Below, one piece after another: positions 14,565-45,411 of a DNA stretch of 64,000 bases. The DNA comes from an uncultured Spirochaetota bacterium. GTDB taxonomy: Bacteria; Spirochaetota; UBA4802; UBA5550. Position 1 is the first letter of the stretch, and each line of letters opens with the position of its first letter. The notes beneath the pieces are model-generated. The model was not told where the DNA came from. It did no database searches and worked only from the letters and a program-made list of their open reading frames with translations. The position numbers and the translations under genes were made by a program. Where the stretch lies: assembly GCA_963827275.1 (NCBI GenBank), contig CAWHAA010000009.1, forward strand, positions 1 through 64,000. Reading direction: 5' to 3'.

Positions 14565-14836
14565 TCGGTCGGCCTCTCTCCCCCCGCGACGACCCAGACG
14601 GAGGAGGGTATCCGCCCCATCGCCCCCCGGCACGCTTTTTCGCCCTCCCGGCCGGCAGCCCGTCGCCGGGAGCTTCCGCGCGGTTGGAGGTCTTACGGCG
14701 ACGGGCTGCCGGCATGGAACGACTTGTAACGGCTCACCTTCAGGCCCACCAGACAATGCGAACCGGCGGTCGCCTTCCCACGATCGGGTGCATCGACGGG
14801 CCGCGCCAGCGCTGATGCGGGGATGCGCTCCGCGCG

Positions 14837-16571: not shown

Positions 16572-16576
16572 CTCCT

Positions 16577-16906
16577 TTACTCCTCTGATGACCCCGGCGT
16601 CGTAGGGCGGATCTTTTGTGCCGCCTTGAGTATATCCATGTCCATTACCAGCTGGCCGACCTTGCGCTCAAGTTTCTTGATCTGCTCGTCCTTGAGAGCT
16701 TCTTCGTCTTTGGGGCGTATTCTCAATGCGTTTTCCGCACCTAAGAGAAAACGATCTTTCCATTCCTCAATTTCTGCGACGGTTAATCCGTTTTGTCTGG
16801 CTGCTTCCTGGCTTGAGATATCCCCTTTCAGAATGCTCAATACCAGTGCCGTTTTTCTTTTGGTTGTCCATCTCTGGGCACTTTCGTTTTCTTGATCTTT
16901 TTCCAT
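16577..16906 (-). CDS. IS3 OrfA (HTH)
   Basis: HTH plus coiled coil; OrfB lies in the -1 frame. Confidence 0.88.
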   Translation of the reverse strand: MEKDQENESAQRWTTKRKTALVLSILKGDISSQEAARQNGLTVAEIEEWKDRFLLGAENALRIRPKDEEALKDEQIKKLERKVGQLVMDMDILKAAQKIRPTTPGSSEE

Positions 16907-18333
16907 GATATTGCCTCTCTATTGACATTATATCATGTCTTATGGGTGGTTTGTCAAGTCAGGGGAGCAGTATAAAGATGCAATATACCTCAGCCGAGCC
17001 GCGACCAGCATCAAGGCCGATTCGCCATCAGGAAATGCTCCGACAACACGAGTACGTCTTCTCACCTCTTTCAGTATTCGTTCCAATGGATTATTGGTCC
17101 TGATTCTTCTCCTGTGCTCATGGGGAAAATCATAATAACTCAATGTCTCATCGATCGATTCAGCTACCAGTTCCGCTGCTTTTTGCAATTTCATCTCTTT
17201 GAGCTTCTCAACCACCTTCTGGGATTTCTCCCGGGCGGCCTGCTTGTCCTCCTGGGCATGAATGGCTTTCAGCATCGTAGCAACCATCTTTACCTTGCCA
17301 TGAGGCACCATAGTAAATACATTCCGATAGAAATGAACGATACAACGCTGCCATTTCGCTTCAGGATAAAAATGTGCAAGGCTTTCGACAAGACCAAGGC
17401 TTTTATCGGAAACAAACAACCGGACGCCTGTTAAACCCCGATCTTTCAAATACCGCAAGAATCCCTGCCAGCTCTCTTTATCTTCTTTGGCTCCTTCGGC
17501 TACCCCTAAAATCTCTCTGAAACCCTCGGAATTGACCCCAAATGCTATTAACACCGATATATTGCGTACTTCGCCACCCCAGCTTCTCTTAAGCCATATG
17601 CCGTCGAGATATACGTAGGCATAGGATCCTGTAATCTTCCTATTCCGCCATGTCTCAATATGCTGGTATACCTTCTTGTTTAAATTGCTTATGGTGCCTG
17701 GCGAAACCTTTGTTCCCCAGAGTGCTTCAGTAATATCTTCAATCCGCCTTACTGATACCCCGGCCAGATACATTTCTACCAGGGACTCTTCTACGGAGAT
17801 TTCACGCCGTTTATATCGCTCAATGATCGCCGTATCGAATGGCAAAGTCCTCAGTTTGGGCATCTTCAGGCTTACTTCTCCAGCCTTAGTATGAAATTTT
17901 CGCTCATAATAGCCAGCCCTGGTATCTTTTCTCTCAGTTGTATGCTCATACTTCTGGGCATTACAGATTGCATCTGCTTCGGCATCAAGCAGGGTATTGA
18001 GTGTTTCTTCCACAGTTCCTCTGACAAATTCTCCCAAATGTTGCTTGATTTTTTCCTCGTTCACCTCGATAATCTTATCAGCTTTCATAAAAGTCCTCCT
18101 CCTGACGTTTTTAAGTGTGGTAATTTAATTTTCGTCAGTTAGAGGACTTTTTTATTGCATGAAAAATGTGCGAAAGATACTATACGTTATCCTCCTCGGC
18201 GGACTTAGGCCGCCTGCGGTCGCCGCTTCCGTAGCGGAGGGTAAAAGCCGCCTGCTTGCTGCACCCCAAACATAGCGTGATGTTACGCTAATCAGCCATC
18301 AAAAATGTCCGCCCAAAGGGCGGACAGACCTAT

Positions 18334-25111: not shown

Positions 25112-26008
25112 ATGGCAGATACGATAATTCAGACCCGTAAAACGCAGGCGAGAAAGCCGGGCGTCTCGTTCGTCCTTTCGCTCTTTTTCCCGGGGCTCGG
25201 CCAGGTGTACAACGGCGACCTGGCCGGGGGGATCGCCTTTGCCCTCCTGCGCACCGTCGCGCTCCTGGCCCCTCCCCTGTGGGCGGCGGCAAGCAGGCCC
25301 CTTTCGTGCGTCGATGTCTTCATTGTTTTCTTTTTCATTGTAATTGTGCTGACATTCGCATCCCCGGTTGAGGCTCTCGTGCGCGCGCGCCGGAACCGGG
25401 AGCTGCCGGTACGGCGGTATAATGCCGCCCTCCCGTATATCGTGTTCGCGATCGCCAATACTGTCATTACCTGCATCGCCGTCATGGTAGTGGCGGCGTT
25501 TTTTTCGGTCCAGGTGCCGGATGCGTTCCGGGCCGGTCCCCTCCTTTCCGCAGGGGACATGGTACTGGTGCGGCATTATGTGCCGGAGGGGCCCCGGCGC
25601 GGGGACCTCGCGGTTCTCGATGACGGGTCCGTCGCGCGTATCATCGCCCGCGAAGGCGACCGGGTTGCCTATGTGAACAATGTTTTCTATGTAAACGGCA
25701 GGAACCTGCCTCTCGGCTATCTCGCCGATCATGTCATCGCGCGCTTCACCGCGGACCGTGAGGAAGTCGTATCGGAAGCCGGCGACGTTGTTTCATACCC
25801 GGTGCGGTTCAAGCAGTCGCAGGCCATCACCCTGCGGGGCATCGGCGGCGTCATGCGGAAGGGGACGCTGCTGGTCGCCTCCGATACAAGGCTCGACCGC
25901 GATTTTGCACGGATTATACCCGCGTCGTCACTCCGCGGCAGGGTGGAAGGGGTCCTCTTCTCGACCTTTCTGCGGAAGATCGGAATTAGCCCGTTTGGTG
26001 ACCTGTAA
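25112..26008 (+). CDS. Membrane protein with a degenerate signal peptidase I (S26) domain
   Basis: FFPGLGQVYNG N-terminal TM module; GDMVLV, RRGD, RII..EGD and RD boxes. Confidence 0.7.
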   Translation: MADTIIQTRKTQARKPGVSFVLSLFFPGLGQVYNGDLAGGIAFALLRTVALLAPPLWAAASRPLSCVDVFIVFFFIVIVLTFASPVEALVRARRNRELPVRRYNAALPYIVFAIANTVITCIAVMVVAAFFSVQVPDAFRAGPLLSAGDMVLVRHYVPEGPRRGDLAVLDDGSVARIIAREGDRVAYVNNVFYVNGRNLPLGYLADHVIARFTADREEVVSEAGDVVSYPVRFKQSQAITLRGIGGVMRKGTLLVASDTRLDRDFARIIPASSLRGRVEGVLFSTFLRKIGISPFGDL

Positions 26009-26038: not shown

Positions 26039-26274
26039 TACCGATAACTATCGGCGGGATACCGATAACTATCGGGCGGGATACCGATAACTATCGGGCA
26101 GGATACCGATAACTATCGGGCAGGATACCGATAACTATCGGGCAGGATACCGATAACTATCGGGCAGGATACCGATAACTATCGGGCAGGATACCGATAA
26201 CTATCGGGCAGGATACCGATAACTATCGGGCAGGATACCGATAACTATCGGGCGGATCCCGATAACTATCAGGC
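26039..26274. repeat. 22-bp tandem array, 11 copies, with near-palindromic core CCGATAACTATCGG
   Basis: GATAACTATC at 26043, 26064, 26086, 26108, 26130, 26152, 26174, 26196, 26218, 26240, 26261; unit TACCGATAACTATCGGGCAGGA. Confidence 0.97.
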
Positions 26275-26303
26275 GGGGACTCATGCCACTTTCAGATGAA
26301 TGT

Positions 26304-27467
26304 TCATTTTGTTATGCTAAATGTATCAATACTCGTGCCAGCGGGCTTTTCCGCGTAAAAGTTCAGCGTGTTCCCCGCAATTTCAACCTTGCAGAAATGG
26401 TTTGATTCATCAATTACATCGACATTCGTTTCTCCGCTTACCGGTGTGACCAGCGGAGCGCCGCCCCCGCCGGTGGTGATGTGATACACGTTATTGACTT
26501 CCGCGCGTGCATAATAATGGTTATGCCCGGCGAAGACAATTGAAACACCGTACAATTCACAGAGCGGTTGGATGTAATTTTGCACACCGGTATCGTTTGG
26601 GTGCCCACCGGCAGCGGACCAGCCGGGCTGGTGAAGGACGATGAATTTCCATATTTTTGTCGATGCCGACAGGTCGCTTTCAAGCCATGCGTACTGCACG
26701 CTCAGCGGGTCATAGGCGACGTATTGGTCGACTATCGCCACATGTACCGGCCCGTAATCGAAAGACCAATAGCAGCCATCAGCGTCCTGATACGGATAGG
26801 GAAAATATTTTCTAAAAAGCCCCTCTCCAAGGTCGTGGTTCCCGACGGCTGATATGAATGGGACCGAGGCCAGATACTTTCTGACGTTCCCAAGGTTAAA
26901 GAATTCACGCTCCCAGAAATCTTCCAATCCGCCTGATGTCACCAGGTCCCCGACTCCGAGAATAAACGTTTTATATGACGGGTCATCCAGAGTCGATGTG
27001 ATAGCCCCGGCCACTTCGTCATGGATATCGGGAAGGGTTCTCGTGTCGCCATAGACCATGAAATTCAGATTGGTCGCCGTTGCGTCCGGCGCGGTGCGAA
27101 AAGAACCGGTATAGGTCTCCTCGTTGATGGTTACCCTGTAACAATAGATGGCTCCCGGGGCCAGCCCGGTAATGATTTGCGAATGGAGATGCTGGTCCCG
27201 GTTGCTGCTGTTTTCATTCGTGACGGCCGTTCCAATGTCATATAGCGTATTGTCTCCCCATGCGATCGAACACTCGGTTGTTATCGCAGTCTGCCATGCG
27301 ATTTTCATCTCGGTGTTATCGCCGGTCATGATAAGATACGGGTCCTTGAATAGTGTTGATCCTCCGGGTAGCGGGACAGGGATAATTTTTTCTTCATGGC
27401 CGCATGCAGCCATGAAAAGGATCAAGACTCCGAGAACTGACACATGTGCTATTTGTAGTTTCCCCAT
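26304..27467 (-). CDS. Purple acid phosphatase-like metallophosphoesterase lipoprotein
   Basis: Lipobox-like MAAC, FN3-like N-domain, YGD, GDL, GNHD, GHNH. Confidence 0.85.
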   Translation of the reverse strand: MGKLQIAHVSVLGVLILFMAACGHEEKIIPVPLPGGSTLFKDPYLIMTGDNTEMKIAWQTAITTECSIAWGDNTLYDIGTAVTNENSSNRDQHLHSQIITGLAPGAIYCYRVTINEETYTGSFRTAPDATATNLNFMVYGDTRTLPDIHDEVAGAITSTLDDPSYKTFILGVGDLVTSGGLEDFWEREFFNLGNVRKYLASVPFISAVGNHDLGEGLFRKYFPYPYQDADGCYWSFDYGPVHVAIVDQYVAYDPLSVQYAWLESDLSASTKIWKFIVLHQPGWSAAGGHPNDTGVQNYIQPLCELYGVSIVFAGHNHYYARAEVNNVYHITTGGGGAPLVTPVSGETNVDVIDESNHFCKVEIAGNTLNFYAEKPAGTSIDTFSITK

Positions 27468-27702
27468 GTCACATCTCTCCAGTATGTTGGGATTACCGAT
27501 AGTACTGTAGGATACTGTAGTTAAGAATATACTATATATTCCTTTCATCCTGGATCATAAATTATGCATTTGTCATTTTTTCTCCAAACAATGTGCTGGA
27601 CATATGTCATGCGGGCTACTACTATTGCGGAAATATTTGATCGCCGTTATCGGCAATACACTGATAAATACAGGCGCGAGTATATCATTTATACTTTCGT
27701 AG

Positions 27703-29803
27703 ATGGAGCGTATGCACGGAACCAGTAAAATAGCTTTTTTAGTAATCTCCGCGCTTTTCATCGCGTGCGGTAAGGGAGAGTTCATAACCGGCGGCCATGC
27801 CCTTTTTCTGGCGGACGGCCCCACGGTGCGCTATACCGTACTCGGCGGCGAGGGAACGCCGCGGTTTCATTCGATACGGTCGCTCAGGGGACTGCCGGGT
27901 GATGAACCGCCCGAGGTCATCGACGTCACTGCGGCCGGCCGTGAAGAGTGCGTCGTCATCACGCGGAAGCACGGAGTGTACAGGGTCGCCGTCTCTGGCG
28001 GAGCGTATAGAAGAATTGACCGGGGCCTCCCCCCGGAAGTGATCTATCCCTATGACGCTACGGGGATTACCAAGCCCGTGGTCAGTATTTCATCTACAAG
28101 CGGAGCCGGCCGCATCGCGCTGATCGTCCCGACCGAGGCATATTACTCGGACAATGGCGGCCGCACCTTTTCCCGGATGCCGCTTGCGGGCGTGAAGCGC
28201 TACACGGAGCTCACATCGATCGCCCTGCATCCGAAGAATGACCGGCTTGTTGTTGTCGGCACCTCGTCAAACGGCATATACGTCTCGCAGGACGGCGGCA
28301 CAACCGCCCGGCGGATAAGGGCGGGCGTGCCGGGCGAACCGGCCGGCTCCCCGAATTTTCTCGAAGAGGTGCGCTCCCTCTGCTTTGGCGGGGACGAGGA
28401 CACCTTCTACGCGGGACTGGGCAACGGCGGCGGCGTGTACCGCGGCAGTATCGCGCGGGGCAACGTGATGCCGGTACGCGCGCCGGGCTCATTACCTATC
28501 CCGACGGCGATTTTTACCGGGTAACCAGCCTGAACTACTTTGACGGAGCCTGTTAATCGGCACGAACCGGGACTGGCGCAAGATCATAGAGACCGCTGAG
28601 ACGAAAAAACAGGGGGCGGCCGCACGGCAGATCCGCGAGGCCTTCCGGGACGGGGAAGGACTTTGTGCCGCTGATTCCGGCGGGATGCATTTTTCCTTTC
28701 CCCCCGAATACCGGCCGCGGCGGGAGTTTGAGCCGGACCACCGCGCCATGGGAAAGCAGGCCATGTATATCAGCTACTCCTTCACCCAGGGCGGGAATTA
28801 CGGCCGTCTTCTGAAGCTGCTCCGTTATCTCAAGCTGAACGCGGTTGTCATCAACCTGAAGGATGATTACGGCACCATACGGGTGCCGGTATCGGACCCC
28901 CTTGTAACAAAGGTGCCCGGCTCTGTCAGGCCCTACGTGAACGTGCTGGAAACGATCAAGCGTCTCCGCTCCGACGGCATCTACGTGATCGCCCGCCAGG
29001 TCTGCTTCAAGGATGACAAGGTGTACGACTTCCTCGGCGGGAAATACGCGGTGAAGAACCCCGCGGGCCGCCCGTTCCACAAGGGCCCGGAGAAGTGGGT
29101 CGACGGCTTCAGCGAGTTCGTCTGGGATTACAACATCGCGGTGGCGCGGGAGCTGGAGAAGGCGGGCGCTGACGAGGTCCAGTTCGATTATATACGCTTC
29201 CCCGACGTGCGGGGCGAGGCCGACAACAGGCGGTTCGATTTCAAAAAAGAGCACCAGACCATGCGTGAGGCCCTGGTCTCGTTCCTGAAAAAGGCGCGGG
29301 CCTCGCTTGAGGTGCCGATTTCGGTCGATCTCTTCGGCTACACCGCGATATACCAGTGGGGCGACTGGATCGGCCAGGACGTGAGCGAGCTGTCGCGCTA
29401 CGTCGATGTTGTCAGCCCCATGTTCTATCCGTCGCATTATACCGGCGGTTACGCGGCCGGGTACGGGGACAGGCGGATTTATTACACCATCTACCTGAGC
29501 TGCAAGCGCGCCAGGGAGCTTTCCGGCGGGGCGCACCTGCGGCCCTATATCCAGGCCTTTTATTACAAGGACAATTCGGACAACTATTGCGTGGATTACA
29601 TCGGATGGGAGCTCGACGGCCTGAAGGACAGCGGCGTGACGGACTATATCTTCTGGAACGACCTGTCCGAATACACGATCCTGATACGGGGCCTGCGCAA
29701 GTACCGCGGCATGGGGGAGGGTCCGGTGCCCCCGGAGATCAAGGCCTGCGTCCCGAAAAAGCTCCCCTTCAGCACGATGGTCGAGCGGGAGGGCCCTTCA
29801 TAG
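27703..29803 (+). CDS. Lipoprotein: beta-propeller region plus putative glycoside hydrolase (DUF4015-like); frameshifts at about 28490-28560
   Basis: SDNGG and SQDGG Asp-boxes; IARQVCFKD, DEVQFDYIRFPD, PMFYPSH, RPYIQAF. Confidence 0.7.
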
Positions 29804-29935
29804 GACCTGCCCGCGGGATGTATTGTTCTTGACTAAAAAGCCCGATCGATGAATTTTAGTAACTGTCACCATACAGTATGCACGACCGGTCCCTCTCTTC
29901 CGGGGGGATCGATATCAATTCCCGGGGGTATCGAC

Positions 29936-30910
29936 ATGATTCTGGTTACTGGCAGCAACAGTCTGCTGGGCGCACGGCTGGTGAAAAAGCTCGCGGAAAG
30001 CGGCGAGACGCTGCGCTGCGTTGACCTGGAGAAGCCAGCGGAGATGCCGGCCGGCGTCGAATTCATCGAGGGCGATATCCTCGACATGATCCTGCTCGGG
30101 AAGCTGTGCAAGGGAGTGGACGCCATCTTCCATCTCATGGACGTGAAGAGCCCGAAGCATCACGGCAGGCGTTACATGAGAAAGATCAACGTGAAGGGCG
30201 TGCGGATGATCCTCAGGGCGGCCAATGCGGCCGGCGTGAAGAGATTCATATTCCTCTCATCGTATGAAGTGTACGGCTCACCCAAAAACCTGCCCGTCGG
30301 CGAGTATGACATGAAGGTGATGAAGCCGGCGACCCGCTACGGAAAGGACAAGCTCAAAGCGGAGAAGATCTGCCAGGAGTTCATAAAGGCGAACAAGATG
30401 TCGATCGCCATGTTCAGGCCGACGCCGATGCTGGGCCCCGGGACCAGGAACCCCATATCGCTCATCACCCTCCTCATGGCCATGGGAATGGAAGAGGCGA
30501 ACCGGATATACGTCGCCGGCCATGGCGAAAACCGGTTCCAGATGCTCCATCCCGAAGACGCCGCTGGCGCCCTGTTCCAGGCGTACAAAACGGGCGTGGC
30601 GTACGGCAAGGTTTACAACCTGGGATCGGACAATGTCCCCACCCAGATGGAACAGATCACCATGGTGAAGGAAAAGGCGGGGCTTGACGCGACGATCATG
30701 CACCTTTCGACGTCAAAGGCGAAATTCCGCTCCTTCTTCCTGAAGCCGTTCAAGATAGATTACCTCAACAAGGGCCACGTGGTATACCTGCTGACCGATC
30801 TGATCCTGAACTGTGAAGCGGCCAAGGCCGACCTGGGATGGCAGCCGCAGTACGGGAACGTCGATATGATCCTCGAAACTATTGACTGGTACAGGAAGGA
30901 AAAACTGTAG
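29936..30910 (+). CDS. NAD-dependent epimerase/dehydratase
   Basis: ILVTG..S.LG, FLSS..VYG, YxxxK. Confidence 0.85.
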   Translation: MILVTGSNSLLGARLVKKLAESGETLRCVDLEKPAEMPAGVEFIEGDILDMILLGKLCKGVDAIFHLMDVKSPKHHGRRYMRKINVKGVRMILRAANAAGVKRFIFLSSYEVYGSPKNLPVGEYDMKVMKPATRYGKDKLKAEKICQEFIKANKMSIAMFRPTPMLGPGTRNPISLITLLMAMGMEEANRIYVAGHGENRFQMLHPEDAAGALFQAYKTGVAYGKVYNLGSDNVPTQMEQITMVKEKAGLDATIMHLSTSKAKFRSFFLKPFKIDYLNKGHVVYLLTDLILNCEAAKADLGWQPQYGNVDMILETIDWYRKEKL

Positions 30911-30960
30911 GGTACGCCCCCCGGCCGTCCGGAGGGGGGCTTTCGGGACCGCAGGCGGGG

Positions 30961-32673
30961 TTATATCTCGTTCTCGTCCAGCCCGGTCCGGTTGCGCTCC
31001 TGCTCCTCGGCGCGCTTTTTCTTTTTCGCGGCCATGGCGTCGCGTCCCTTCTTCGTGAGGACTTTTTTCAGCAGCTCCCATAACTTGACAAGCAGCAGCG
31101 TGAGAAACTGTCCCCTGCTTCCCTTGCCGGTTTCCGAGGTGAAGATGAGCTGCGCCTTTTTCATCTCCGCGATGCTGAGCTTCCGGTCGTCGAGCTTCAT
31201 CTGCTTCATCATCTGCTTCGCCTGGGTCTTGGCGAGCTTCATCGTCTCCTTGTCGTCGGTCAGCTCTTTTCTTTCAACGAACATGTACACCATGTCCGGA
31301 TTTTTCAGCATTTTCCTCTTGATGCGGACGAGGGTGTCGAGCGCTTCGATGAGCACCTGGTTTTCGGCGTTGCCGTTTTCCATGAGCATCTGGATATACT
31401 GGTAGAAGAACTGCAGCTGGCGGAAGAGCTTTTTCTTCTCTATCAGGGTGAGCTCCTTGAGGTCGATGATGGTGAAGCGCTGGAGCGTGAACTGGATGAA
31501 TTCCAGCTGTTCCGGCCCCAGGTTGTAGAGGAGCTCGCTGTTCAGGTCGCTGATCTCGATGTACTTGTTGGCAACCTCTTTCAGGTCGTTGAACATCTTG
31601 TCGGAAGAGTCCATGATGTTGCGGAACGCGATCTTTTCCGGCGTTGGATGATTTTTGCCTCCGGGCCGAGCTTTTTGTATTCGTCCATCTTTGTCTTGAT
31701 GGTGCGGATGTCCATCGTGTCAGCGTATACCTGGACGTTCTGGCTTCTTCAGCTGCTCCTCCATCTCCATGATGTCGGGCTTGGCGATATCGTCGCCGAT
31801 CTTCAGCACGTTCAGCTTGATGTCGCCGAGCTTGACCTTGAGCTCGTGCTTCTCGATCTTGCTGATGCCGTCGGTGACCACCAGTATCTCGGACTTTGCC
31901 ATCTCCTTGTCGAAGGTGATGTCGCTGATGGCCTGTAAAATGGCCTCGTGGATATTGGTGCTCCTGCCGCCGGTCGTCGTGAGGAGTATCTCCTCGATGA
32001 GCCGGGGGAAATCCTGCTGTTTCTCGACCTTGATGAGGTTCCCGGGCCTGGAATCAAAGGGGCGGAAAAATATCTTCGCGCGGGAGTTGTATTTTCGCCT
32101 CAGGAATTCGGCGATGATGCACTTTGAATAGAAGGTGCGCATCTTCGCCTCCATCGATTTTGAGCGGTCCAGGAGGATGAAAAATTTCTGCTCGTAGCGG
32201 GTCGCTTCCTTCCCCTTCTTGTCGCGGGAGGTGGATATCGGCTTGAAGCTGTCTGCTTCGGTCTCGTAGTGCCGCTGGACCAGCAGGGTCTTCGTGTACA
32301 GCTTCATGTCGAAGACTTCCTGCTCAAGGGCCAGTTCGCGGGGCAGGGCTTTTTTCAGGTCGATGATGTTCCGGTAGCGGTCGATCTCCATCCGGTCGGA
32401 CAGGGGCGAAATTTTTTCAAGGCGGTTGACCTGGATGCTCTCCTTGCGGTCAGGCTTGTAGTCCTTGTCTTCTTTGGATATCTCCTCGATGGCGGTGAAG
32501 GCGTCGTTGAGCCGCTCGTCGGTGAAAATCACGCGCGCGATCTCGAAAAGCGCGAAGAACTGCGGGGGGAGGATGGAGCGCGAATATTCGAAAAAGCCGA
32601 GAGAGTCCCAGTATTCGAAAAAGTCGATGTCTTCGGGGTTGGTTCTTCTGAATCCGACGCTTTCCGGGCTCAC
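30961..32673 (-). CDS. VWA-domain protein (ViaA-like); frameshifts at about 31640-31745
   Basis: MIDAS motif LLDRSKSM, TTGG, VVTDG; bridging frame links ORFs 31720-32673 and 30961-31614. Confidence 0.75.
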
Positions 32674-32685
32674 GGCAGGCCTCTG

Positions 32686-34179
32686 CTAGTAGAGTTCACG
32701 GTAGTCCTGCATGATGCCGTTTTTCAGCTCCTGTACCTCTTCCACCGCGGGGGTGAGATCGAGAATGTTTTTCTTCAAGGACTCGATGGTGAGCTTCTGG
32801 TCGTCTTCCGGCCGCCGGTTGGGGAAGAGCTTCCTCAGGAATTCAAGCACGCTCTGCAGAACGCCCTTGCGGGCCAGGATGGCGTCGCGCCGTTCCGGGT
32901 TCTGCCGTATCTCCTGGAACACCTGGCGGATGTTCAGCAGAAGTTCGATCTGCTGGAACGCCCCGGTTGCCTTGTAGTGCGTCATGGTCTGGTTGAAGGT
33001 GTCGAGATACAGGTCGACCTCGGATTTGTCCTTTGCCTTTACCGATATGTAGCTGTTGAGCGTGGTGAGGCAGAGGAACATCTCTTTCAGGTCGTCGGTC
33101 GTCACCTGGAACCGGTTGTTCAGGAGGGCCGAGGCACGGAGGAAGTCGCCCTGTTTCGCGATTTTCCGCGGTGACAGGAAATAGTTATAGTCGCTCTTGC
33201 GCATTTCGCTCATGAACTTGTCAATCAGCACGTTTTTCATGAAATAGATGAAGTCCGGCGTTTCGATCCTGATGGTGCGGTTCTTGTTCTTGATGATATC
33301 ATACAGGTAGAGTATCTGGTTGAAGAATATCTTTTGTTCGGGCTCCACCGGCTTTCCGCCGCTCATCGAGTAGGTGTGGTCGATGAGGAGCTGGTTGTAG
33401 ACGTTCGTGTTTTCAGGGATAATGGACTTGTAGGTAAAGCGGTCGAGCACCGCTTCGGTGACCTCGTTCATGCGCATGTAGTTCGCGGTGGCGATCGCGG
33501 TATGAACGGCGGTATCGATCTGCTCGGAGCCGTTGATGAATTTCCGCTCGTTCAGTACCGTGAGGAGCGACCGGAGCACCACGTCGCTGGCGTCGAAAAA
33601 TTCGTCCAGGAACACGAGGTTGGCCTCTATGATGGACCCCATGATGTTGTGGCGTATCCGTCCTTTTTTGAATTCTTCGATATTGTACGGGCCGAAATAG
33701 TTGTCCGGGGTCTGGTCCTTGCTGGCCTGCGACGAGAAGATCCGGGCGCCTTCGAAGGTGTTGAATATGTACTGGGCGAGATATGATTTCGCCATCCCGG
33801 TTCGCGACAAAAGCAGCATGTGCTCGCCGGTGAGGATGGCGAACATTGCCTGCCGGACGATTTCGCTGCGGCCGATGACATTTTCGCTGATGCGGTTCAT
33901 GTGCCAGTTCAGGTTTCCCACGATGGTGGGGATGTCGAATTCATCGGACCTGATGGTCGCGAGCTCGCTTTTCTGGTCGGGGATTTTTTCAACCGGAGCC
34001 GCGGGGGTGGCAATCTTTTCCCTGTCACTTTTTTTTGCAAGGAAGTTGAGGTAATCCCGCGCACGCTCGGATTGTTGTGTCGGCACCTGGTCCTGAAGCC
34101 CCTCGGGAAGCTTGGCCTGGTTGATTACATTGAAACCGTCTTCCTCGAGAATTTTCTGTATATCTTGTTGTTTGCTCAT
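32686..34179 (-). CDS. MoxR-family AAA+ ATPase (RavA-like)
   Basis: GEHMLL..RTGMAKS, FLDE, LLTVLNER, AVLDRF; adjacent to the VWA gene. Confidence 0.82.
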   Translation of the reverse strand: MSKQQDIQKILEEDGFNVINQAKLPEGLQDQVPTQQSERARDYLNFLAKKSDREKIATPAAPVEKIPDQKSELATIRSDEFDIPTIVGNLNWHMNRISENVIGRSEIVRQAMFAILTGEHMLLLSRTGMAKSYLAQYIFNTFEGARIFSSQASKDQTPDNYFGPYNIEEFKKGRIRHNIMGSIIEANLVFLDEFFDASDVVLRSLLTVLNERKFINGSEQIDTAVHTAIATANYMRMNEVTEAVLDRFTYKSIIPENTNVYNQLLIDHTYSMSGGKPVEPEQKIFFNQILYLYDIIKNKNRTIRIETPDFIYFMKNVLIDKFMSEMRKSDYNYFLSPRKIAKQGDFLRASALLNNRFQVTTDDLKEMFLCLTTLNSYISVKAKDKSEVDLYLDTFNQTMTHYKATGAFQQIELLLNIRQVFQEIRQNPERRDAILARKGVLQSVLEFLRKLFPNRRPEDDQKLTIESLKKNILDLTPAVEEVQELKNGIMQDYRELY

Positions 34180-34190
34180 CGCGGTGCCTT

Positions 34191-35810
34191 TCAGGATGTT
34201 TTTTCTACTACAGGCAGGACGATCCGGAAGGATGTGCCCTCGCCGGGGGCGCTCTTTACGCCGATAGAGCCGCCGAGGTTCTGGACGATGGCGGAGGCGA
34301 TCATCAGCCCGAGTCCCGTTGCCTGTTTTCCCTTTGTGGTGAAAAAGGGCTGAAATATTTTCTGGAGGTTTTCTTCGGGTATCCCGACGCCGGTATCAGC
34401 AATCGTCAATATCGCGAAAACGCCATCGTTTGATTTCTTGGTGATCACCGAGAGGCGGATTGATCCCTTGTTGGGCATCGCCTCTTCCGCGTTTTCGATG
34501 AACTGGATGAGAAGTTGCTGGAGCTGGTTCTGGTTCGCCCGCACGGCGGCCTCATCCCGGGTGGATTCCACCGTGATTTCAAAACCTTCACTCCTGAGGC
34601 GTTTGAGCATCACCTCGACCTGGTGGCTGGTGAGTATTTTGTTGAGGTCGCAGATGTCCTTTTCATCTTCGTCCGCCGAGGAGAGGCTTGTCAGTTGCTC
34701 GGTGATGTTTTTTATTCTTCCCAGCTCATGGTGAAGGGACACGATGTAGTCGCCCGAGGGGCTTCCTTCTTCAAGGTTGTTGTCGACGAAGTTAAGGTCC
34801 ATCACCATCTTGTTGATGCTGGCTTTAAGCTCCAGTGCCACGCCCGATGCGAGGATCCCGAGGGCGGACAGCTTTTCAGCTTCGAACACGCGGTTGGTGA
34901 TGACGGCCTGCTCGGTATGGTCTTCAACCATAAAAATGATTTTTTCAAAGTTGTTTGCCGAATCGGTCAGTGGGACCAGTGTCGCGTTGATTATCAGGTT
35001 GCGGCCGCTCGTCAGCGCGCGATACGGGATGTTGAAAGCCCTCACGGTTTTCTTTTCATTCTGGCAGTTCTCATATAGCTTCCCGAGTTCGCTGTCGGTG
35101 AAGCCTTTTTCGTTCAACAGGTTGACGCCGACGAGCGTGTCAGTCTGGCTGTGGCCCATTATCTGCTTCAGGGCCGGGTTTTCTGACATGACGATCCCGG
35201 ATGGATCCATTACGAATATCCCGACGGGCGCATGGTTGATGATGTCTTCGTTGAAGTCGCGGAGGCCCTTCAGCTCGGTTGCCTGCGCGAGCTGTTCCTT
35301 GACCTTTATCTCGAGTATCCGGCTGTACTCGTTGGCTTTTTTCTCTGCCAGGTGCTTGTCGGTGATATTTTTCATGATGCCAACAAGCCCGACGATTTCT
35401 CCCTCGTCTGACTTTATCGGCGATAAGCTCGCAGTCAGGTATATCTTCTGCCCCTTTTCGTTATAGGTCTTGAGTATTTCATTCCTGAAGGTCTTTCCAT
35501 TCTTGGTGACCTCATTGAATACAAAAGCGGCGCGGTCCTGCTCGATGCTCGGTATATTCCTGGAATAATGGCTGCCCATCTTGTTATCTTCTGAAGTGGG
35601 GAATAATTCTTTCCATGCTGAATTGATGTAGATAATATTACCCTGCTTGTCGATCACGAAGATAAGATCGGAGGCAGCTTCCAGGAGGGAATAATAATCG
35701 ATCTTTGTTCCCCCGATTTCTCCGGCGCTGCTCTTGTGTTTCTGATGGAGATCCTGAATTTTCCGGATCAGTTCATCTTTTGAGAGATTGTGCAGGTTCG
35801 TGGAATCCAT
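34191..35810 (-). CDS. Dual-PAS histidine kinase-like protein
   Basis: Two PAS domains; N, G1 (DTGVG), F (PFFTTK) and G2 (GLGL) boxes. Confidence 0.88.
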   Translation of the reverse strand: MDSTNLHNLSKDELIRKIQDLHQKHKSSAGEIGGTKIDYYSLLEAASDLIFVIDKQGNIIYINSAWKELFPTSEDNKMGSHYSRNIPSIEQDRAAFVFNEVTKNGKTFRNEILKTYNEKGQKIYLTASLSPIKSDEGEIVGLVGIMKNITDKHLAEKKANEYSRILEIKVKEQLAQATELKGLRDFNEDIINHAPVGIFVMDPSGIVMSENPALKQIMGHSQTDTLVGVNLLNEKGFTDSELGKLYENCQNEKKTVRAFNIPYRALTSGRNLIINATLVPLTDSANNFEKIIFMVEDHTEQAVITNRVFEAEKLSALGILASGVALELKASINKMVMDLNFVDNNLEEGSPSGDYIVSLHHELGRIKNITEQLTSLSSADEDEKDICDLNKILTSHQVEVMLKRLRSEGFEITVESTRDEAAVRANQNQLQQLLIQFIENAEEAMPNKGSIRLSVITKKSNDGVFAILTIADTGVGIPEENLQKIFQPFFTTKGKQATGLGLMIASAIVQNLGGSIGVKSAPGEGTSFRIVLPVVEKTS

Positions 35811-35830
35811 ATGGGGTAACAGGCGTGCGC

Positions 35831-36253
35831 CTATTTGTGTCCTTCCGGGGTTTTTGCCGCAAATTTAAGTTTTCTCTGGAGCTTGTTGGCGGTAATGAGG
35901 AACCATACCTCAACAAAAAGGCTCAATATCGTACCGAGAAGGAAAGAGCCGCCGAAGAATATCTGGTCCATCCCGAGAAAAAATAACCCGCCAAGAGCAA
36001 TGATGGCGAGAAATAGTATTTTGATAGGAAAAGAGGCAAGCGTTACAGTGAACATCACCATTATATTGGAGACGATCGCCTTTCTCGCAATGAAAATCCA
36101 TACCAACGAGAAGAACATGCTCAACATGGTACCGAGGAAGTAGCCCTTGAATTCCGGAAGGCTCCTGTTGAAATAGCAATAAACCGAAATCGCGATATTG
36201 AGGATTATTGGCAGGCAGATAAGAATGGTCGCTTTAATAAATATCTTTTTCAT
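35831..36253 (-). CDS. Hypothetical 4-TM membrane protein
   Basis: Four hydrophobic segments. Confidence 0.7.
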   Translation of the reverse strand: MKKIFIKATILICLPIILNIAISVYCYFNRSLPEFKGYFLGTMLSMFFSLVWIFIARKAIVSNIMVMFTVTLASFPIKILFLAIIALGGLFFLGMDQIFFGGSFLLGTILSLFVEVWFLITANKLQRKLKFAAKTPEGHK

Positions 36254-36319
36254 TGCTACTCTGTCATGGTTACGTTAAATTTTTAATAGTGCATCGAGAG
36301 AAAAAATATGAAGATATCT

Positions 36320-36363
36320 GCGGCAAGGGGAGGTCTGTCTGGTGCAGTCATCCCCTTGCCGCT
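36320..36363. terminator. Hairpin downstream of adk
   Basis: GCGGCAAGGGGA...TCCCCTTGCCGC stem. Confidence 0.5.
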
Positions 36364-36442
36364 AATTTCTATTTTATTACCACCACCCTTGCATGATTCC
36401 GGTGCGGTGTCAAGTCTATTTGTCTATGGACGCAGTCCTGCT

Positions 36443-37135
36443 TTATCCGAGCTTTTTCATCAGATCATCGCTGACTTCTTTCACGCCCGGTTTTCCGTCA
36501 AGTTCAATAATCCGGGGAACACCCTTGTTTTCCGTGGACAGCTTTTTAAAATAGCCCACCGCCGCAAGCGTGCCGGTTTTTGTGTTGTAGTAAATATCAT
36601 GACGCTTGCCGATAGCCGTCTCGTCCTGGTCGTCTGAACGGGCGGAAAGTTTGCCGCCGCATACCCGGCATACCATTTCGCCGTCTTTTTCGGCCGGCTT
36701 GATGGCGTCTATGAAAATATTATTGGGATGGTTGTTGTCGTTCGCGCAGAGCCTTCTTCCCATGATCCGGTTTTTCGCGATTTCCCGGTCAAGTAATATC
36801 TCTATAACGCAGTCGAGCTTTATCCCGGCTTTTTTGAGGGCTTCGTCAAGAGCCTTGGCCTGTTCGTCATTCCGGGGAAAGCCGTCAAGGAGCCATCCTT
36901 TTTTGCAGTCGTCCTTTTGGAGACGGTCAAGGATCATCGGGATGGTAATATCGTCGGGAACAAGGTCCCCGCGATCGATATATACTTTCGCCTTCTTGCC
37001 GAGTTCAGTGCCGCCTTTGATATTTTCCCTGAAAATAACGCCAGATTCGATATGCGTAACATTATACTTTTTTTGAACCACTGCGCCCTGTGTGCCTTTG
37101 CCGCTTCCATTGGGCCCAAATATAAGAATATTCAT
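36443..37135 (-). CDS. adk: Adenylate kinase
   Basis: GPNGSGKGT, GDLVPD, LDGFPR, LID domain, RSDD. Confidence 0.95.
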   Translation of the reverse strand: MNILIFGPNGSGKGTQGAVVQKKYNVTHIESGVIFRENIKGGTELGKKAKVYIDRGDLVPDDITIPMILDRLQKDDCKKGWLLDGFPRNDEQAKALDEALKKAGIKLDCVIEILLDREIAKNRIMGRRLCANDNNHPNNIFIDAIKPAEKDGEMVCRVCGGKLSARSDDQDETAIGKRHDIYYNTKTGTLAAVGYFKKLSTENKGVPRIIELDGKPGVKEVSDDLMKKLG

Positions 37136-37345
37136 GAAAACACCTCTTTTGATAATTTTTTACAGAATGAAAACTTGCTATATAAAAGTAAAGAAAGTTT
37201 TTCTATTAAATCCCTAAAATATTACACTAAATATGGCTTTTTTGGGAGGCTGTGCGGAAAAATTTTTTATGGATCAACTCAGGATTTTCGTTTCATTTCA
37301 TATCGCGACTGTCGCAATTTTGATTTTTTGCTGGTGTCGATTTTC

Positions 37346-37363
37346 AATCGATAGTTATCGGTA
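37346..37363. promoter_or_regulatory. Upstream copy of 18-bp inverted repeat (operator- or recombination-site-like)
   Basis: AATCGATAGTTATCGGTA, exact reverse complement of 37730-37747; next to extended -10-like TGTTATACT (37367-37375) and RBS AAGGAG (37384-37389). Confidence 0.75.
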
Positions 37364-37394
37364 TGCTGTTATACTATGTAATTAAGGAGATTGG

Positions 37395-37859
37395 ATGATG
37401 ATTGAGAGCACGATCAATATGCATGTTGAAATTCTCGGAAAGCTTACACAGGCAGCTCTTGTTACCGGTCAAAGCCGGCAGAAGATCATATCATTCATAT
37501 TGAAAAAGTTTGCCGATGAAACTCGGCTCCCGCTCTCGCCATGGTCAAGAATTAGATATCAGGGCCGGGATAGCAGGGATAACTGGCATAGGCTTCATGT
37601 TGCTTTGTCGCCGGCCGAATATGAGTTGTTGTTGGATTTGAAGAAGGCTTGTAAATTATCTGGTTCAAGGATTATTGCGTATGCGATAGAGAAGTATCTT
37701 TTTGATCTCTTGAACAATTTTACGGAAACTACCGATAACTATCGATTAAACAGTTATATCTTGTTGTATGGGTCGATCGATAATGTGGCTTACTGTGTCC
37801 AGTATTGGGGAATGCCCACACATCCCCCTGCATTTCCATCACGCCACTCCAATATCTGA
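37395..37859 (+). CDS. Orphan 154-aa putative DNA-binding protein (two ribbon-helix-helix-like segments, reminiscent of spirochaete DUF1564-like proteins)
   Basis: Good RBS; strand-helix-helix patterns at the N-terminus and at HRLHVAL...SRIIAYAIEKYL; lower GC than neighbours; family call is from recall. Confidence 0.7.
   Translation: MMIESTINMHVEILGKLTQAALVTGQSRQKIISFILKKFADETRLPLSPWSRIRYQGRDSRDNWHRLHVALSPAEYELLLDLKKACKLSGSRIIAYAIEKYLFDLLNNFTETTDNYRLNSYILLYGSIDNVAYCVQYWGMPTHPPAFPSRHSNI
37730..37747. repeat. Intragenic copy of 18-bp inverted repeat (encodes TDNYR)
   Basis: TACCGATAACTATCGATT. Confidence 0.85.
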
Positions 37860-38077
37860 ATAAAACCAGGCGGGTTTCTACGCATAGATGCAGATATGGA
37901 ATTTGCTTCAGTCAAACAGTCAATAAAAGACTTGCAATATAATTTACTCTGTGGCATTACGACTCAAGTGTTTTTAATACGTATATTTTCGCAGCCCGCA
38001 CGGGCGGTGAAAATTGCCGCTCAGTATATCGCAGCCGGGCGTTCCCGTTTTGCTGTTTCGTAAAATAGAAAGTATCA

Positions 38078-38764
38078 ATGGGCATTATTCAGAATTATAA
38101 CAGGATCCGGGACGAGATCGCGAAGACGGCCATATCCGTTGGAAGAAACCCCGGCGATATACGCATAATAGCCGTTAGTAAGACTTTCGTTGCGGCGGTC
38201 GTCCAGGAGGCGATCGACGAAGGAATCCGGGTTTTCGGCGAGAACAAGGTCCAGGAAGCGAAAAGAAAGATCCCGCAGCTCAAAGGGAGCTTTTCCTTTC
38301 ATATGGTGGGGCACCTTCAAACAAACAAGGCCCACGATGCGGTGAAGATTTTTGACCTTATTCATTCCATCGACAGGGCCGATACCGCTGAAAAGGTGGA
38401 CCTGGAATCAGGCCGTATCGGCAAGATACAGAAGGTCCTCGTGCAGGTGAATGCATCGGGGGAAGAGAGTAAAAGCGGGGTTGCTCCGGAATCAGCGCTC
38501 GCACTGGTTACGCGCGTGCTGGAACTTGAGCACCTGGAGCTCATGGGGCTTATGGCCATGGCGCCGTTTACCGATGACGCGGGCCCGGTGCGGAACGCAT
38601 TCAGGGAGACGCGGCGGTTGCTCGATGATATCAACAACTCCCTGGGGATTGACCTCCGCGAGCTTTCCATGGGGATGTCATCGGATTACCGGATTGCGGT
38701 AGAAGAGGGCGCGACACTGGTGAGAATAGGGACGGCGATTTTCGGAGACAGGAACCAGGAATGA
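38078..38764 (+). CDS. yggS: PLP homeostasis protein
   Basis: AVSK, FGENKVQE, GHLQTNK, LSMGMS.D, VRIGTAIFG. Confidence 0.95.
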   Translation: MGIIQNYNRIRDEIAKTAISVGRNPGDIRIIAVSKTFVAAVVQEAIDEGIRVFGENKVQEAKRKIPQLKGSFSFHMVGHLQTNKAHDAVKIFDLIHSIDRADTAEKVDLESGRIGKIQKVLVQVNASGEESKSGVAPESALALVTRVLELEHLELMGLMAMAPFTDDAGPVRNAFRETRRLLDDINNSLGIDLRELSMGMSSDYRIAVEEGATLVRIGTAIFGDRNQE

Positions 38765-39573
38765 CTGCGGGGAAAAAAACTATAGGCTGTATTGGCGCGG
38801 GCAACATGGGCGGGGCCATCCTGTCACGGTTGGCCGCGGGCATTGACCCGTCACTCATATTGGTGTATGATGCTGATGCCGACAAGGCAAAGAAATTGTC
38901 CCGCGCCACCGGGATAACGGTCGCGGCCACGGCGGAAGACCTGGCCCGCGCGTCGTCGATCATCATTGTCGCGGTGAAGCCTGATACTGTCGCGGCCGTC
39001 CTGGGCGCCATCAAGGGATCAATAGCCGCAGGATCGATTATCGTGTCCATCGCGGCGGGCATAACACTGGCCGCCATGGAGAGGATCATCGGCCCATCGG
39101 CGAAGCTCGTACGGGTTATGCCCAATACCCCGTCCCTGGTCGGCGAGGGAATGTCGGTGCTATCCCCGAACGCGAACGTTGATGGGGATTCACTAATTGA
39201 GGTGGAGCAGATATTTTCGAAGATCGGCAGGGCTATGGTGCTGCCGGAAAAACTGATGGATGCCGTTACCGGCCTGTCGGGCAGCGGCCCGGCGTACGTG
39301 TTCACCTTCATCCAGGCGCTGTCCGATGGCGGCGTCAAGCTGGGGATCCCGCGCGACAAGGCTCTTCTGCTTGCCGCGCAGACGGTGATGGGAGCGGCGA
39401 AATACGTGCTGGAGACCGGCGAGGACCCCATGTCTCTCCGGGGGAAGGTGACATCGCCCGGCGGGACCACCATTGAGGGCATCCATGTGCTCGAGCGGAG
39501 CGGTTTTGCCGGAATCGTCATGGACGCTGTCGAGCATGCCGCGCAAAAATCTCAACGACTTGGAGAAAAATAA
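38761..39573 (+). CDS. proC: Pyrroline-5-carboxylate reductase
   Basis: GAGNMG, RVMPN, SGSGPAY, SPGGTT. Confidence 0.95.
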   Translation: MTAGKKTIGCIGAGNMGGAILSRLAAGIDPSLILVYDADADKAKKLSRATGITVAATAEDLARASSIIIVAVKPDTVAAVLGAIKGSIAAGSIIVSIAAGITLAAMERIIGPSAKLVRVMPNTPSLVGEGMSVLSPNANVDGDSLIEVEQIFSKIGRAMVLPEKLMDAVTGLSGSGPAYVFTFIQALSDGGVKLGIPRDKALLLAAQTVMGAAKYVLETGEDPMSLRGKVTSPGGTTIEGIHVLERSGFAGIVMDAVEHAAQKSQRLGEK

Positions 39574-42299: not shown

Positions 42300-42381
42300 T
42301 TACTCTGACCCCCTGACCCCCGACTTTTTACTCTGACACCATATATCTGGCACCAAATTGCCTGTTATTTACTCTGACCCC
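42300..42381. repeat. Three copies of TTACTCTGAC(C/A)CC
   Basis: Copies at about 42300, 42328 and 42369 in an AT-rich intergenic region. Confidence 0.75.
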
Positions 42382-42511
42382 GGTTAGAATAAAAAAATTA
42401 TTTGAATTTTTTCATGTGACTTAAAAGATGTACAAATTGTCCAAAAAATAGTATATTAAATAATAAATAATATGTCATATTACAAGGGCTATCAGGAAGT
42501 CTCATGACGTC

Positions 42512-43371: not shown

Positions 43372-44101
43372 ATGCCTCAATTCTTCATTACCTCATCGGA
43401 CGTCGTGCATAACAGGTGCCGTATCGGGGGCGAAGATTTTCGCCACCTGGTCACGGTGCGTCGCGCGAAGCCCGGCGACCGCCTCCTGCTCCGCGACGAG
43501 AAGGGCGCCTCGCTCACGGCGCGGATCGCCCGCATTACCGGGGAGTTCATCGAGGCGGATATCCTCGGCGGGGGTGCGCCGCGGCCGCTCCCTGTCGAGA
43601 TCACGCTCTGCATGTGCCTGTTAAAGGGAAAGAACTTCGATTCCGTCCTTGAAAAAGCGGTGGAGGTCGGGGTCACGCGGATCATCCCGGTGGTATCGGA
43701 GCGGACAATCCCCCATCCCGCTGACGAGACGGGGCGGACTGACCGGTGGCGGAGGAAGGCGGAGGAGGCGGCCAAGCAGTCGCTGCGCGAATCGGTCCCG
43801 CGCGTTGAGCGGACCGTCGCGTTCCGCGACCTGATCGTTTCACGCCGCGATCCCGCGCTGATCATCGCCCATCCCGGGGCGGCCCTGCCGATGAAGGAGT
43901 ACCTGCGCGGCAGCGCGGCCCGGCGCGGTGAGCCTCCTGGTGGGGCCCGAGGGGGGCTTCAGCCCGGGGGAGACCGGGGCGGCTGCGGCGGCGGGGTGGA
44001 CGGCGGTCAACCTCGGGTCATCGCACCTGCGGGCCGGCACCGCGGCGACGGTCCTCTGCGGCATCATCATGTACGAGTGGGGAGACGGGGCCCCGGAATA
44101 A
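43372..44101 (+). CDS. rsmE: 16S rRNA m3U1498 methyltransferase (frameshift near 43920)
   Basis: HLVTVRR, EKAVEVG, EAAKQS.R; shifted frame VGPEGGFS...LG..HLR. Confidence 0.88.
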
Positions 44102-45411
44102 TGGAAAAACAGGTATACACGGCCATTGACGCGAACATCAACCGCGCGCAGGAGGGACTTCGCGTGTGCGAGGACATCATGCGCTTCTGCCTTCACCGGA
44201 CCGATTTCTCCGCGCGCCTCAAGGAGGCGCGCCACCGGGTCGCCGATGCCGCGCGCTCCTTCCCGCCGCACCGTTCCCTGTACGGCCGTGATGTCGGGGC
44301 AGACGCGCAGAAGTTCATCGACCTGGAGGGCGAAAAGACCCGCAACTCTCTCGCCGACATGTTTTCATCGAACCTGCACCGCGCGACCGAGGCAGTCAGG
44401 TCGCTCGAGGAATTCGGGAAGCTCGCGGGGATCGGCGGGGAGGCCTTCCAGTCGATACGTTTCGAGCTGTATGCGCTTGAGCGCGATGCCGTTTCCGCGC
44501 TGCTGCGCCGCGCCGCGGCCGGGCGTTTCAACCGGGGGCTCTACGCGGTGCTCGATTCCGCCTTCGTGCCCGCCGGTGGTTTTTCCGCGGCGGCGGGCGA
44601 CATGATAAAGGGGGGCGCGTCCGTCATACAGCTCAGGATGAAGGCCCCGTCGCAAAATGAGATTCTTGAAACGGCGAAGGAGATCGCGGAACTATGCCGG
44701 CGTGAAAATGTTCTTTTCATCCTTAACGGCCACGCCGACATCGCGCTCCTCGCGGGGGCCGACGGGGTGCACCTGGAGATGAACGACCTCTGCGTTCGCG
44801 ACGTGCGCGGGTTCGTCCCTCCGGATATGATCATCGGCCAGACAATCTTTTCGCCCGACGAGATCGGCCGGGCCGAGCGCGACGGGGCCGACTATATTGT
44901 CGTGGGCCCGGTGTACGCCACTGTCTGGCATACCGATGCCGGCGCCATGGAGTTGCGGGGATCGGGGATCGCGATCATCGCCCGGGCGCACGGGATGACC
45001 TCCCTGCCCGTGGTGGCGACCGGCGGGATCACGCCTGAGAACGCCGGCGCGGTCATGGCCGCGGGCGCCAGCGCCGTGCTGGCCACGACCTTCCTCTTCC
45101 GGGACGGGAACCAGGAAGGAAACTGCAGGGCGCTTGCGGCAGCGATACAATCCTCCGTCCGGCGTCGACTAATGAAGAAGGAACAATCGCCCGGTGCGGC
45201 CCTCGAAGCGATGCGGGAGCTCTGGCGCGCCGCCAGGTCCGCGAAGCTCTCCCGGAGGGATGAACTGCTCGCCGCCGGGTGCGGCATGGCGGCAGTGCGG
45301 CGGGACAGGGCGTTCCGCGCAAGCAGAAAGATGCAGCGGCGGTATGCAGGGATGATACGCCACGTCGAACGGACCATGAACAGGAAACGCGCTCGTGAAA
45401 AAAAGGGATAA
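44101..45411 (+). CDS. thiE: Long-form thiamine-phosphate synthase-like protein; the tail from 45172 may be a separate small gene
   Basis: DANINRAQEGLRVCED N-domain, QLRMK, ADGVHL, ATGGI. Confidence 0.7.
   Translation: MEKQVYTAIDANINRAQEGLRVCEDIMRFCLHRTDFSARLKEARHRVADAARSFPPHRSLYGRDVGADAQKFIDLEGEKTRNSLADMFSSNLHRATEAVRSLEEFGKLAGIGGEAFQSIRFELYALERDAVSALLRRAAAGRFNRGLYAVLDSAFVPAGGFSAAAGDMIKGGASVIQLRMKAPSQNEILETAKEIAELCRRENVLFILNGHADIALLAGADGVHLEMNDLCVRDVRGFVPPDMIIGQTIFSPDEIGRAERDGADYIVVGPVYATVWHTDAGAMELRGSGIAIIARAHGMTSLPVVATGGITPENAGAVMAAGASAVLATTFLFRDGNQEGNCRALAAAIQSSVRRRLMKKEQSPGAALEAMRELWRAARSAKLSRRDELLAAGCGMAAVRRDRAFRASRKMQRRYAGMIRHVERTMNRKRAREKKG

Follow-up and report, generated by a model that had tools for sequence, protein, structure and literature searches.

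MatP with its matS sites, SlmA and Noc are sequence-specific nucleoid proteins encoded by conserved, single-copy genes. CdbA is counted with such proteins in the available part of PMC7156744. The F-plasmid protein TraY is described, in the accessible text of PMC12117103, as a monomer folded like a ribbon-helix-helix (RHH) dimer, which attaches to DNA in a train of three. Here we analyse a stretch of 64,000 nucleotides (the window) from an uncultured Spirochaetota bacterium (contig CAWHAA010000009.1 of assembly GCA_963827275.1), which encodes a predicted RHH protein, P0001, and holds copies of a short palindromic site that has the consensus TACCGATAACTATCG genome-wide. The genome (G000) measures 4.13 Mb in 11 contigs and is 92% complete. 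Our preferred reading, held with moderate confidence, is that the RHH gene belongs to a transposon-borne family, that the protein binds the site, that a copy of the site inside the gene serves as a built-in operator, and that the protein may have become a domesticated, DNA-bending nucleoid factor in this lineage.

The P0001 gene (37395..37859, plus strand, 154 amino acids) was called an orphan in a preliminary description of this DNA, which did not hold, as G000 contains 10 paralogues that are 29-43% identical to P0001. The protein has no Pfam or NCBIfam match, and its named homologues are all from Spirochaetes. A profile of the family is matched by 748 representatives. The family occurs in 32 of 41 relatives with 1-78 matches each, and in 14 of 151 genomes of a phylum-wide scan, only two of these lying outside the order. 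At least 25 matches were found in one genome outside the order (G056, family f8). An ESM Atlas search with the query L264:1501-2025 returned an unnamed cluster, mostly of Thermodesulfobacteriota (score 0.89), which is a lead for a superfamily extending beyond spirochaetes. The available part of PMC3493377 contains nothing on the RHH gene family, and no earlier description of the family or the site was found in the literature searched, which did not include bioRxiv supplements and most subscription papers.

The structural model of P0001 (pLDDT 92) has strands at residues 3-10 and 64-71 and helices at 11-24, 28-40, 73-86 and 90-107, followed by a C-terminal hairpin. The beta-alpha-alpha unit typical of the RHH superfamily occurs twice (residues 3-40 and 64-107), with the two-stranded recognition sheet also in place. 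The top structural match of the model is an F-plasmid relaxosome chain (9f0x_E; Z 9.8, rmsd 3.3, 104 residues aligned), which we take to be TraY from the size of the chain, its label being unchecked. A Foldseek search with the model gave E 7.9e-4, and the family profile matches CopG at E 7e-4. Model, profile match and fold searches all agree with the RHH fold anticipated in the preliminary description, and P0001 is a predicted single-chain double RHH protein of TraY-like type. Both P0001 and TraY carry two RHH units in one chain, but P0001 has an extra C-terminal beta hairpin, and its family is chromosomal, multi-copy and provided with a site within its own gene. Relaxosome accessory proteins such as TraY are encoded on conjugative elements together with a relaxase and an oriT, whereas no relaxase or transfer genes were found among 75 neighbours scanned and the neighbours of P0001 in the window are unrelated housekeeping genes. 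One of these is the divergent adenylate kinase gene (adk; 36443..37135, minus strand), which stands outside the proposed system. A fixed functional partner gene was ruled out because the neighbours of family copies are unrelated.

The in-gene site (37730..37744, plus strand; CGATAACTATCG match at 37733-37744) is spelled by codons T113-D114-N115-Y116-R117, and TDNY lies in the loop joining the second RHH unit to the C-terminal hairpin in the model. Codon use was compared in 105 genes of median 33% identity, which are the best-scoring loci of about 30 genomes rather than all matches. GAT is used in 97 of 97 cases, AAC in 89 of 92, TAT in 89 of 91 and ACC in 59 of 63, against background frequencies of 77%, 33%, 75% and 27%, respectively. 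The freezing of these codons at the DNA level, as suggested in the preliminary description, extends to 48 representatives below 50% identity (ACC 19/25, GAT 37/37, AAC 38/40, TAT 44/46), where control columns show no codon bias. Position 113 switches among T, P, A and S with CC retained, and the site is flipped in frame in genes of G021, G026, G035 and G030, turning N into S or T. Judging from these patterns of codon use, the in-gene site is selected as DNA. The central recognition residues by alignment with CopG are T6 and H68, kept in 97 and 94 of the 105 genes. Both arms of the site change jointly, to CATA.AC.TATG in G037 and to GGATA.AC.TATCC in G032, and H68 is often replaced in these clades. 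Replacements include H68P in G037 and H68K in G030. The variant sites are enriched in their own genomes (35 against 5 in the control; 15 and 16 against 0), many of the matches in G037 falling within the RHH genes themselves. Variant proteins carrying variant sites provide a built-in test of specificity. The protein likely binds the 14-bp palindrome carried in the coding sequence of nearly every copy, and two protomers quite probably bind its two 7-bp halves through the strand residues T6 and H68. Whether this copy within the gene acts as a built-in operator, by which the protein pooled from all genes keeps each new copy in check, is about an even call.

The preliminary description knew the site from three settings only, namely an array, the region upstream of the P0001 gene and the gene itself. 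The genome contains 185 exact copies of CGATAACTATCG and 232 of CCGATAACTATC, the latter being the commonest 12-mer of G000 (1.46 copies expected under a Markov-5 model). The word CGATA-NN-TATCG has an AC/GT centre in 185 of its 197 occurrences. The 232 copies form 117 clusters, which include, besides the array in the window, three pure arrays of 5-9 copies with periods of 19-22 bp. In many clusters the site alternates with a second motif, here called motif B, at 42-44 bp. The motif tracks with the gene across genomes, as had been proposed: each of the 9 relatives that lack the gene has 0-1 site, and 25 of the 32 that possess it have 14-232, in counts that include in-gene copies and come from related genomes that are not independent. 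Sites also sit within unrelated genes in several frames. The exact motif codes 8 of 24 PITI peptides against 0.08 expected (two repeat proteins left out), and such codon usage indicates that sites in unrelated genes arise by synonymous choice. In the two large repeat proteins (G000:C7:270754-283704), each 96-aa repeat contains the site once, spelled by PITI codons, which makes 16 copies.

The sites are scattered along both chromosome arms and are helically phased. Where neighbours lie more than 48 bp apart, their spacings, with one value used for each period and cluster, follow a 10.5-bp phase both in G000 (n=15, p=0.0004) and in the pooled set of other genomes (n=31, p=0.0025). The scattered copies resemble sites for a protein that binds double-stranded DNA, and binding by P0001 is suggested indirectly by the co-occurrence of gene and site, the joint strand and site variants, the phasing and the frozen codons. 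A promoter regulon was ruled out, with single sites in 20 tandem, 11 divergent and 4 convergent positions, like the background. A strand polarity as in KOPS or Chi was likewise rejected, the clusters showing no strong polarity (46 leading, 67 lagging, 4 mixed). Contig order in G000 was inferred from 20 sampled stretches of the near-closed genome G016, with C7 ambiguous and C3 and C11 unplaced. Up to a distance of 0.6 Mb from dnaA this order places 11 clusters, at 0.6-1.8 Mb it places 90 and farther out none, while intergenic counts are flat along the genome. G016 (dnaA at 1.42 Mb) has one site between 0.71 and 1.92 Mb, and among the sites listed of the 143 beyond 3.03 Mb none falls at 3.59-4.33 Mb, where the skew turns. 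Gaps at the origin were seen in G008 and G013 as well. Many chromosomal sites that are zoned, at least by the inferred contig order of G000, and that also lie in coding DNA are shared with sequence-specific nucleoid proteins. The RHH family differs from these proteins by its many paralogues, its patchy presence and sites that are thin at origin and terminus alike.

In two relatives, G023 and G037, the family sits in small ISKra4-type transposons. Copies in the young clades of G037, G030 and G035 (dN/dS 0.15, 0.10 and 0.10) have unrelated neighbours, and similarity among the G037 copies stops sharply at inverted repeats. Ends were located by a matrix scan with a cross-pair control, an earlier scan having been noisy with chance matches in most groups. 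Both inverted ends flank 12 of 20 genes in G023 and 10 of 24 in G037, and most elements measure 660-690 bp. Target duplications of 8 bp (at least about 7 of 8 bases matching) accompany 8 of the two-ended elements in G023 and 7 in G037, and in an independent test ends with duplications exceed the control in both genomes (8/20 against 6/60 and 6/24 against 0/60). The terminal inverted repeats match the ends of an ISKra4 insertion sequence (IS). A metagenome scan with the end sequence returned eight loci, none with the RHH gene. One is a complete IS of 1.5 kb that encodes an ISKra4 transposase (281.8 bits against a cut-off of 205), and two are 160-bp MITEs (miniature transposable elements bounded by inverted repeats; L349:2361-2521 and L350:2501-2663) with perfect 8-9 bp duplications. 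Of 51 copies, 39 are divergent to the upstream gene, which fits insertion upstream of promoters, as the accessible part of PMC3942029 reports ISKra4-group elements to insert upstream of sigma-A promoters. Inverted ends and 8-bp duplications are shared with ISKra4-family (p-MULT 4) elements, but the elements found here contain no transposase and carry one fixed passenger under purifying selection with a frozen internal site. The family likely spread within such small transposons. The proteins of G023 and G037 are only 24-30% identical, so that the element layout either goes back to their ancestor or results from two captures.

ISKra4-type ends were not detected in the genus of the window, and none of the 10 paralogues in G000 has both ends in the matrix scan, which was built from G023 and G037 ends and is therefore blind to other end types. 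Beside adk the window's copy is also present in 10 other loci, but G014 lacks it at that place, a synteny that marks it as an old insertion. From this position, the undetected ends and the missing ISKra4 match in G000, we infer that the copy is an old, domesticated insertion. The proposal that the elements of this genus are old, have lost their ends and now encode a sequence-specific, DNA-bending nucleoid protein acting on mid-arm sites falls slightly short of an even chance. The genomes compared here may represent stages, beginning with a young passenger transposon that has few sites elsewhere and leading to old copies accompanied by a network of phased sites across the genome. Regulatory or structural networks could be built in this way, a role of transposons that is familiar in eukaryotes.

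Several observations weigh against the preferred reading. A gene of G027 (L030) has H68 changed yet retains the canonical site. Seven of the 32 genomes with the gene have only 0-6 canonical sites, including G019 and G030, the latter with 78 genes, and kinship makes the co-occurrence of gene and site less than independent. In the four genomes outside the genus the phasing does not reach significance (n=19, p=0.13), and single intergenic sites show no promoter bias. Motif B has part of the same mid-arm bias, so that the zoning could belong to the region itself. Ends and duplications do not exceed the control in the genus of the window (6/60 against 4/60), in g14 (4/34 against 13/60) or in G030 (1/26 against 2/60), and G000, at its stated completeness, has no ISKra4 transposase match. 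The lack of ends in the genus and of this transposase makes the mobile origin of the window's copy an extrapolation. Two separate captures by elements are possible.

The main rival explanation, improbable in our view, sees the protein as a selfish transposition helper. Bound at the in-gene site, it would bend the element in the manner of TraY or IHF, or recruit the ISKra4 transposase, so that copies with intact gene and site jump more. The genome-wide sites and arrays would then be by-products of duplication promoted by the protein rather than the outcome of a benefit to the host. Such a helper would account for the purifying selection seen in young copies, which are redundant and number in the dozens, and for a site that is kept within the element even where no upstream copy exists. 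It also agrees with the common element geometry of two clades with so divergent proteins, with a relaxosome accessory protein as the best fold match and with the patchy presence of the gene among sister genera. Against a helper, the two MITEs have the same ends and jumped although they contain neither gene nor site. The sites also reach their highest numbers where ends are lost and their lowest where elements are young, and they arise in unrelated genes by synonymous choice.

A second family repeats the pattern. Of the 16 genomes of family f15, presumably Leptospira and kin as judged from the Pfam description, 12 contain DUF1564 (PF07600). The DUF1564 model (pLDDT 67) has the same topology as P0001 and the same top structural match (Z 5.9), and DUF1564 resembles the RHH family in its dispersed paralogues, the frozen codons in the same loop and a genome-wide palindrome. 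Strand residues and site arms differ between the two. In 29 DUF1564 genes the equivalent loop uses GGA in 27 of 27 cases and GTT in 23 of 23, a test weakened by the close relatedness of many of these genes, and the frozen codons yield the palindrome GGAGTTCC. Among the 12 genomes with DUF1564, 11 have 60-234 copies of the word RGGAGTTCCYAC and G179 has 7, and the four genomes without DUF1564 have 1-5. G179 has at least 22 DUF1564 matches, and either its site may be a variant or its expansion young. In G153, also of family f15, no listed sites fall in the first 515 kb after dnaA, but listed sites occur near the opposite pole. The DUF1564 palindrome and the RHH site have the same central AACT/AGTT, and GTRGGAGTTCCYAC is a candidate target of the DUF1564 protein. 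Profile comparison by hhalign is weak (probability 18.6, E 0.0013), a cross hmmsearch between the two families gives E 5e-4 in 105 sequences, and the ESM Atlas score is 0.90. P0001 does not reach the Pfam cut-off of DUF1564, which has no matches in the window's order. On these comparisons of sequence and model, homology of the two families is likely but not proven.

The observation is wider than the preliminary description, as the family is transposon-borne in relatives and DUF1564 repeats the pattern. CENP-B is a transposon-derived satellite binder. It is conceivable, if rather doubtful at present, that a spirochaete-wide counterpart of CENP-B exists, in which a transposon-borne DNA-bending gene with its own site seeds hundreds of phased sites, as well as satellites, on the host chromosome and is domesticated as a mid-arm chromosome organiser, with DUF1564 as the binding factor of the Leptospira variable-number tandem repeat (VNTR) satellites. 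The core of the DUF1564 palindrome occurs in the consensus sequences of the 46-nt satellite of L. interrogans, the spread of which is called rare and unexplained in the available part of PMC6749651. The core also occurs in Leptospira VNTR units given in the accessible text of PMC1185519. No paper on DUF1564 was found in the literature searched, most subscription papers lying outside it, and a search combining GGAGTTCC with Leptospira returned matches judged unrelated from the parts of the sources available. The results provide a candidate DNA target for two unannotated paralogue families from sequence alone, and a candidate protein for Leptospira non-coding satellites, which serve in strain typing.

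The palindrome might instead be the site of another conserved host protein, which would regulate the RHH genes carrying it. One site common to many divergent paralogues would be expected under such regulation, binding by P0001 is itself a prediction from sequence, and G030 has its many genes without a genome-wide site. We nevertheless consider a separate host regulator quite unlikely, given that all nine relatives without the gene have at most one site, that the four f15 genomes without DUF1564 are similarly poor in its palindrome, and that site variants follow changes in the recognition strand.

Repetitive extragenic palindromes (REP) and bacterial interspersed mosaic elements (BIME), which are associated with the RAYT and TIRYT transposases, resemble the site described here as abundant short palindromes that occur in arrays and alternate with motif B. 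Motif B fits the TIRYT consensus GGGG[AT][CG]A[CG] given in the accessible parts of PMC6006769 and PMC3733652, and flanks 5 of 6 Y1 transposase genes. The site might be a REP-type single-strand hairpin spread by Y1 transposases, with the RHH protein unrelated to it. The alternation of many clusters with motif B at fixed spacing and the preference of arrays for convergent intergenic gaps (14/43 against a background of 11%) speak for such a hairpin. Yet the site is found within 1.5 kb of none of the 6 Y1 genes, the composite of site and motif B is confined to 1 of 20 genera, and G021, G032 and G038 have gene and site with no Y1 match, which makes motif B separable from the site. Complementarity stops at 7 bp, which rules out a long hairpin or terminator, and neither helical phasing nor in-frame freezing is expected of a Y1-mobilised repeat. 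Unlike in REP/BIME systems, the partner gene is a predicted DNA-binding protein without an HUH motif and carries the repeat inside. Mobilisation of the site by Y1 or RAYT enzymes was rejected on the Y1 flanks, the range of the composite and the genomes without Y1, leaving it a very small probability. Three copies of motif B without the RHH site lie at 42303-42383 of the window, upstream of a LolA-like gene.

Within the window, CGATAACTATCG has 13 matches at up to one mismatch against 0.24 expected, a number reached in none of 100 shuffles, and array, upstream copy and in-gene copy all lie where the preliminary description had placed them. The array (26039..26274, plus strand) holds 11 sites with a period of 22 bp (10.8 copies, 97% match). 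It is flanked on the left by a signal peptidase I-like gene (25112-26008, plus strand) and on the right by a convergent metallophosphoesterase gene (26304-27548, minus strand), and the inferred contig order puts the window at a distance of about 1 Mb from dnaA. The first array copy does share 17 bp with the copy inside the gene, as noted before, but this identity barely exceeds the consensus and so does not tie the array to the P0001 gene. The orthologous place in five relatives has 2, 3, 2, 2 (about 300 bp off) and 0 sites. The 2-3 sites found at the 3' end of the signal peptidase gene in four of these relatives have either orientation and unrelated spacers, which argues for recent local amplification. 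From this comparison, the array arose recently, when a small, phased cluster of 2-3 sites underwent slippage-type expansion, and a role as a dedicated centromere is not supported. The period, the RHH fold and the distance of 11 kb had suggested a centromere-like or decoy platform for the P0001 gene alone, a notion with next to no probability left given the 117 clusters, the other pure arrays, the 10 paralogues, the non-conservation of the array, the distance of the window from dnaA and the lack of a partition ATPase among 49 window proteins scanned. Type Ib/II partition systems (ParG, ParR) have a partition ATPase as neighbour and a single centromere, and neither was found here.

The upstream site (37349..37363, minus strand; inverted CGATAACTATCG match at 37349-37360) overlaps a weak sigma70-like match at 37348-37375, which is at chance level (1 found against 1.7 in shuffles). 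It is retained with one mismatch in two 70%-identical orthologues. Upstream copies occur in 3 of the 10 paralogues in G000 and in 20 of 101 genes (G023, G030, G032 and G037 left out). Promoter autoregulation, a point raised in the preliminary description, would thereby hold for a minority of family genes, the majority having no upstream copy. Four public runs, compared as contigs only with positions 36400-38800, showed no inversion between the upstream and in-gene sites.

Other features of the window stand apart from the RHH family. An open reading frame (ORF) of 679 aa at 43372-45411 combines RsmE-type RNA methyltransferase, ThiD2 and thiamine-phosphate synthase domains, through fusion or a lost stop. 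The adenylosuccinate synthetase ORF at 13290-15290 encodes 666 aa, with the domain beginning at residue 248. An IS3-type integrase-core ORF lies beside a Mutator/IS256 transposase at 15747-18191, and the IS256 stretch has copies on C4 and C8 that are 96-100% identical. A tandem repeat at 54980-55276 has a unit of 163 bp (1.8 copies, 94% match), and elsewhere in G000 a third repeat family, CCCCTGTCCCCC, is present in 52 copies.

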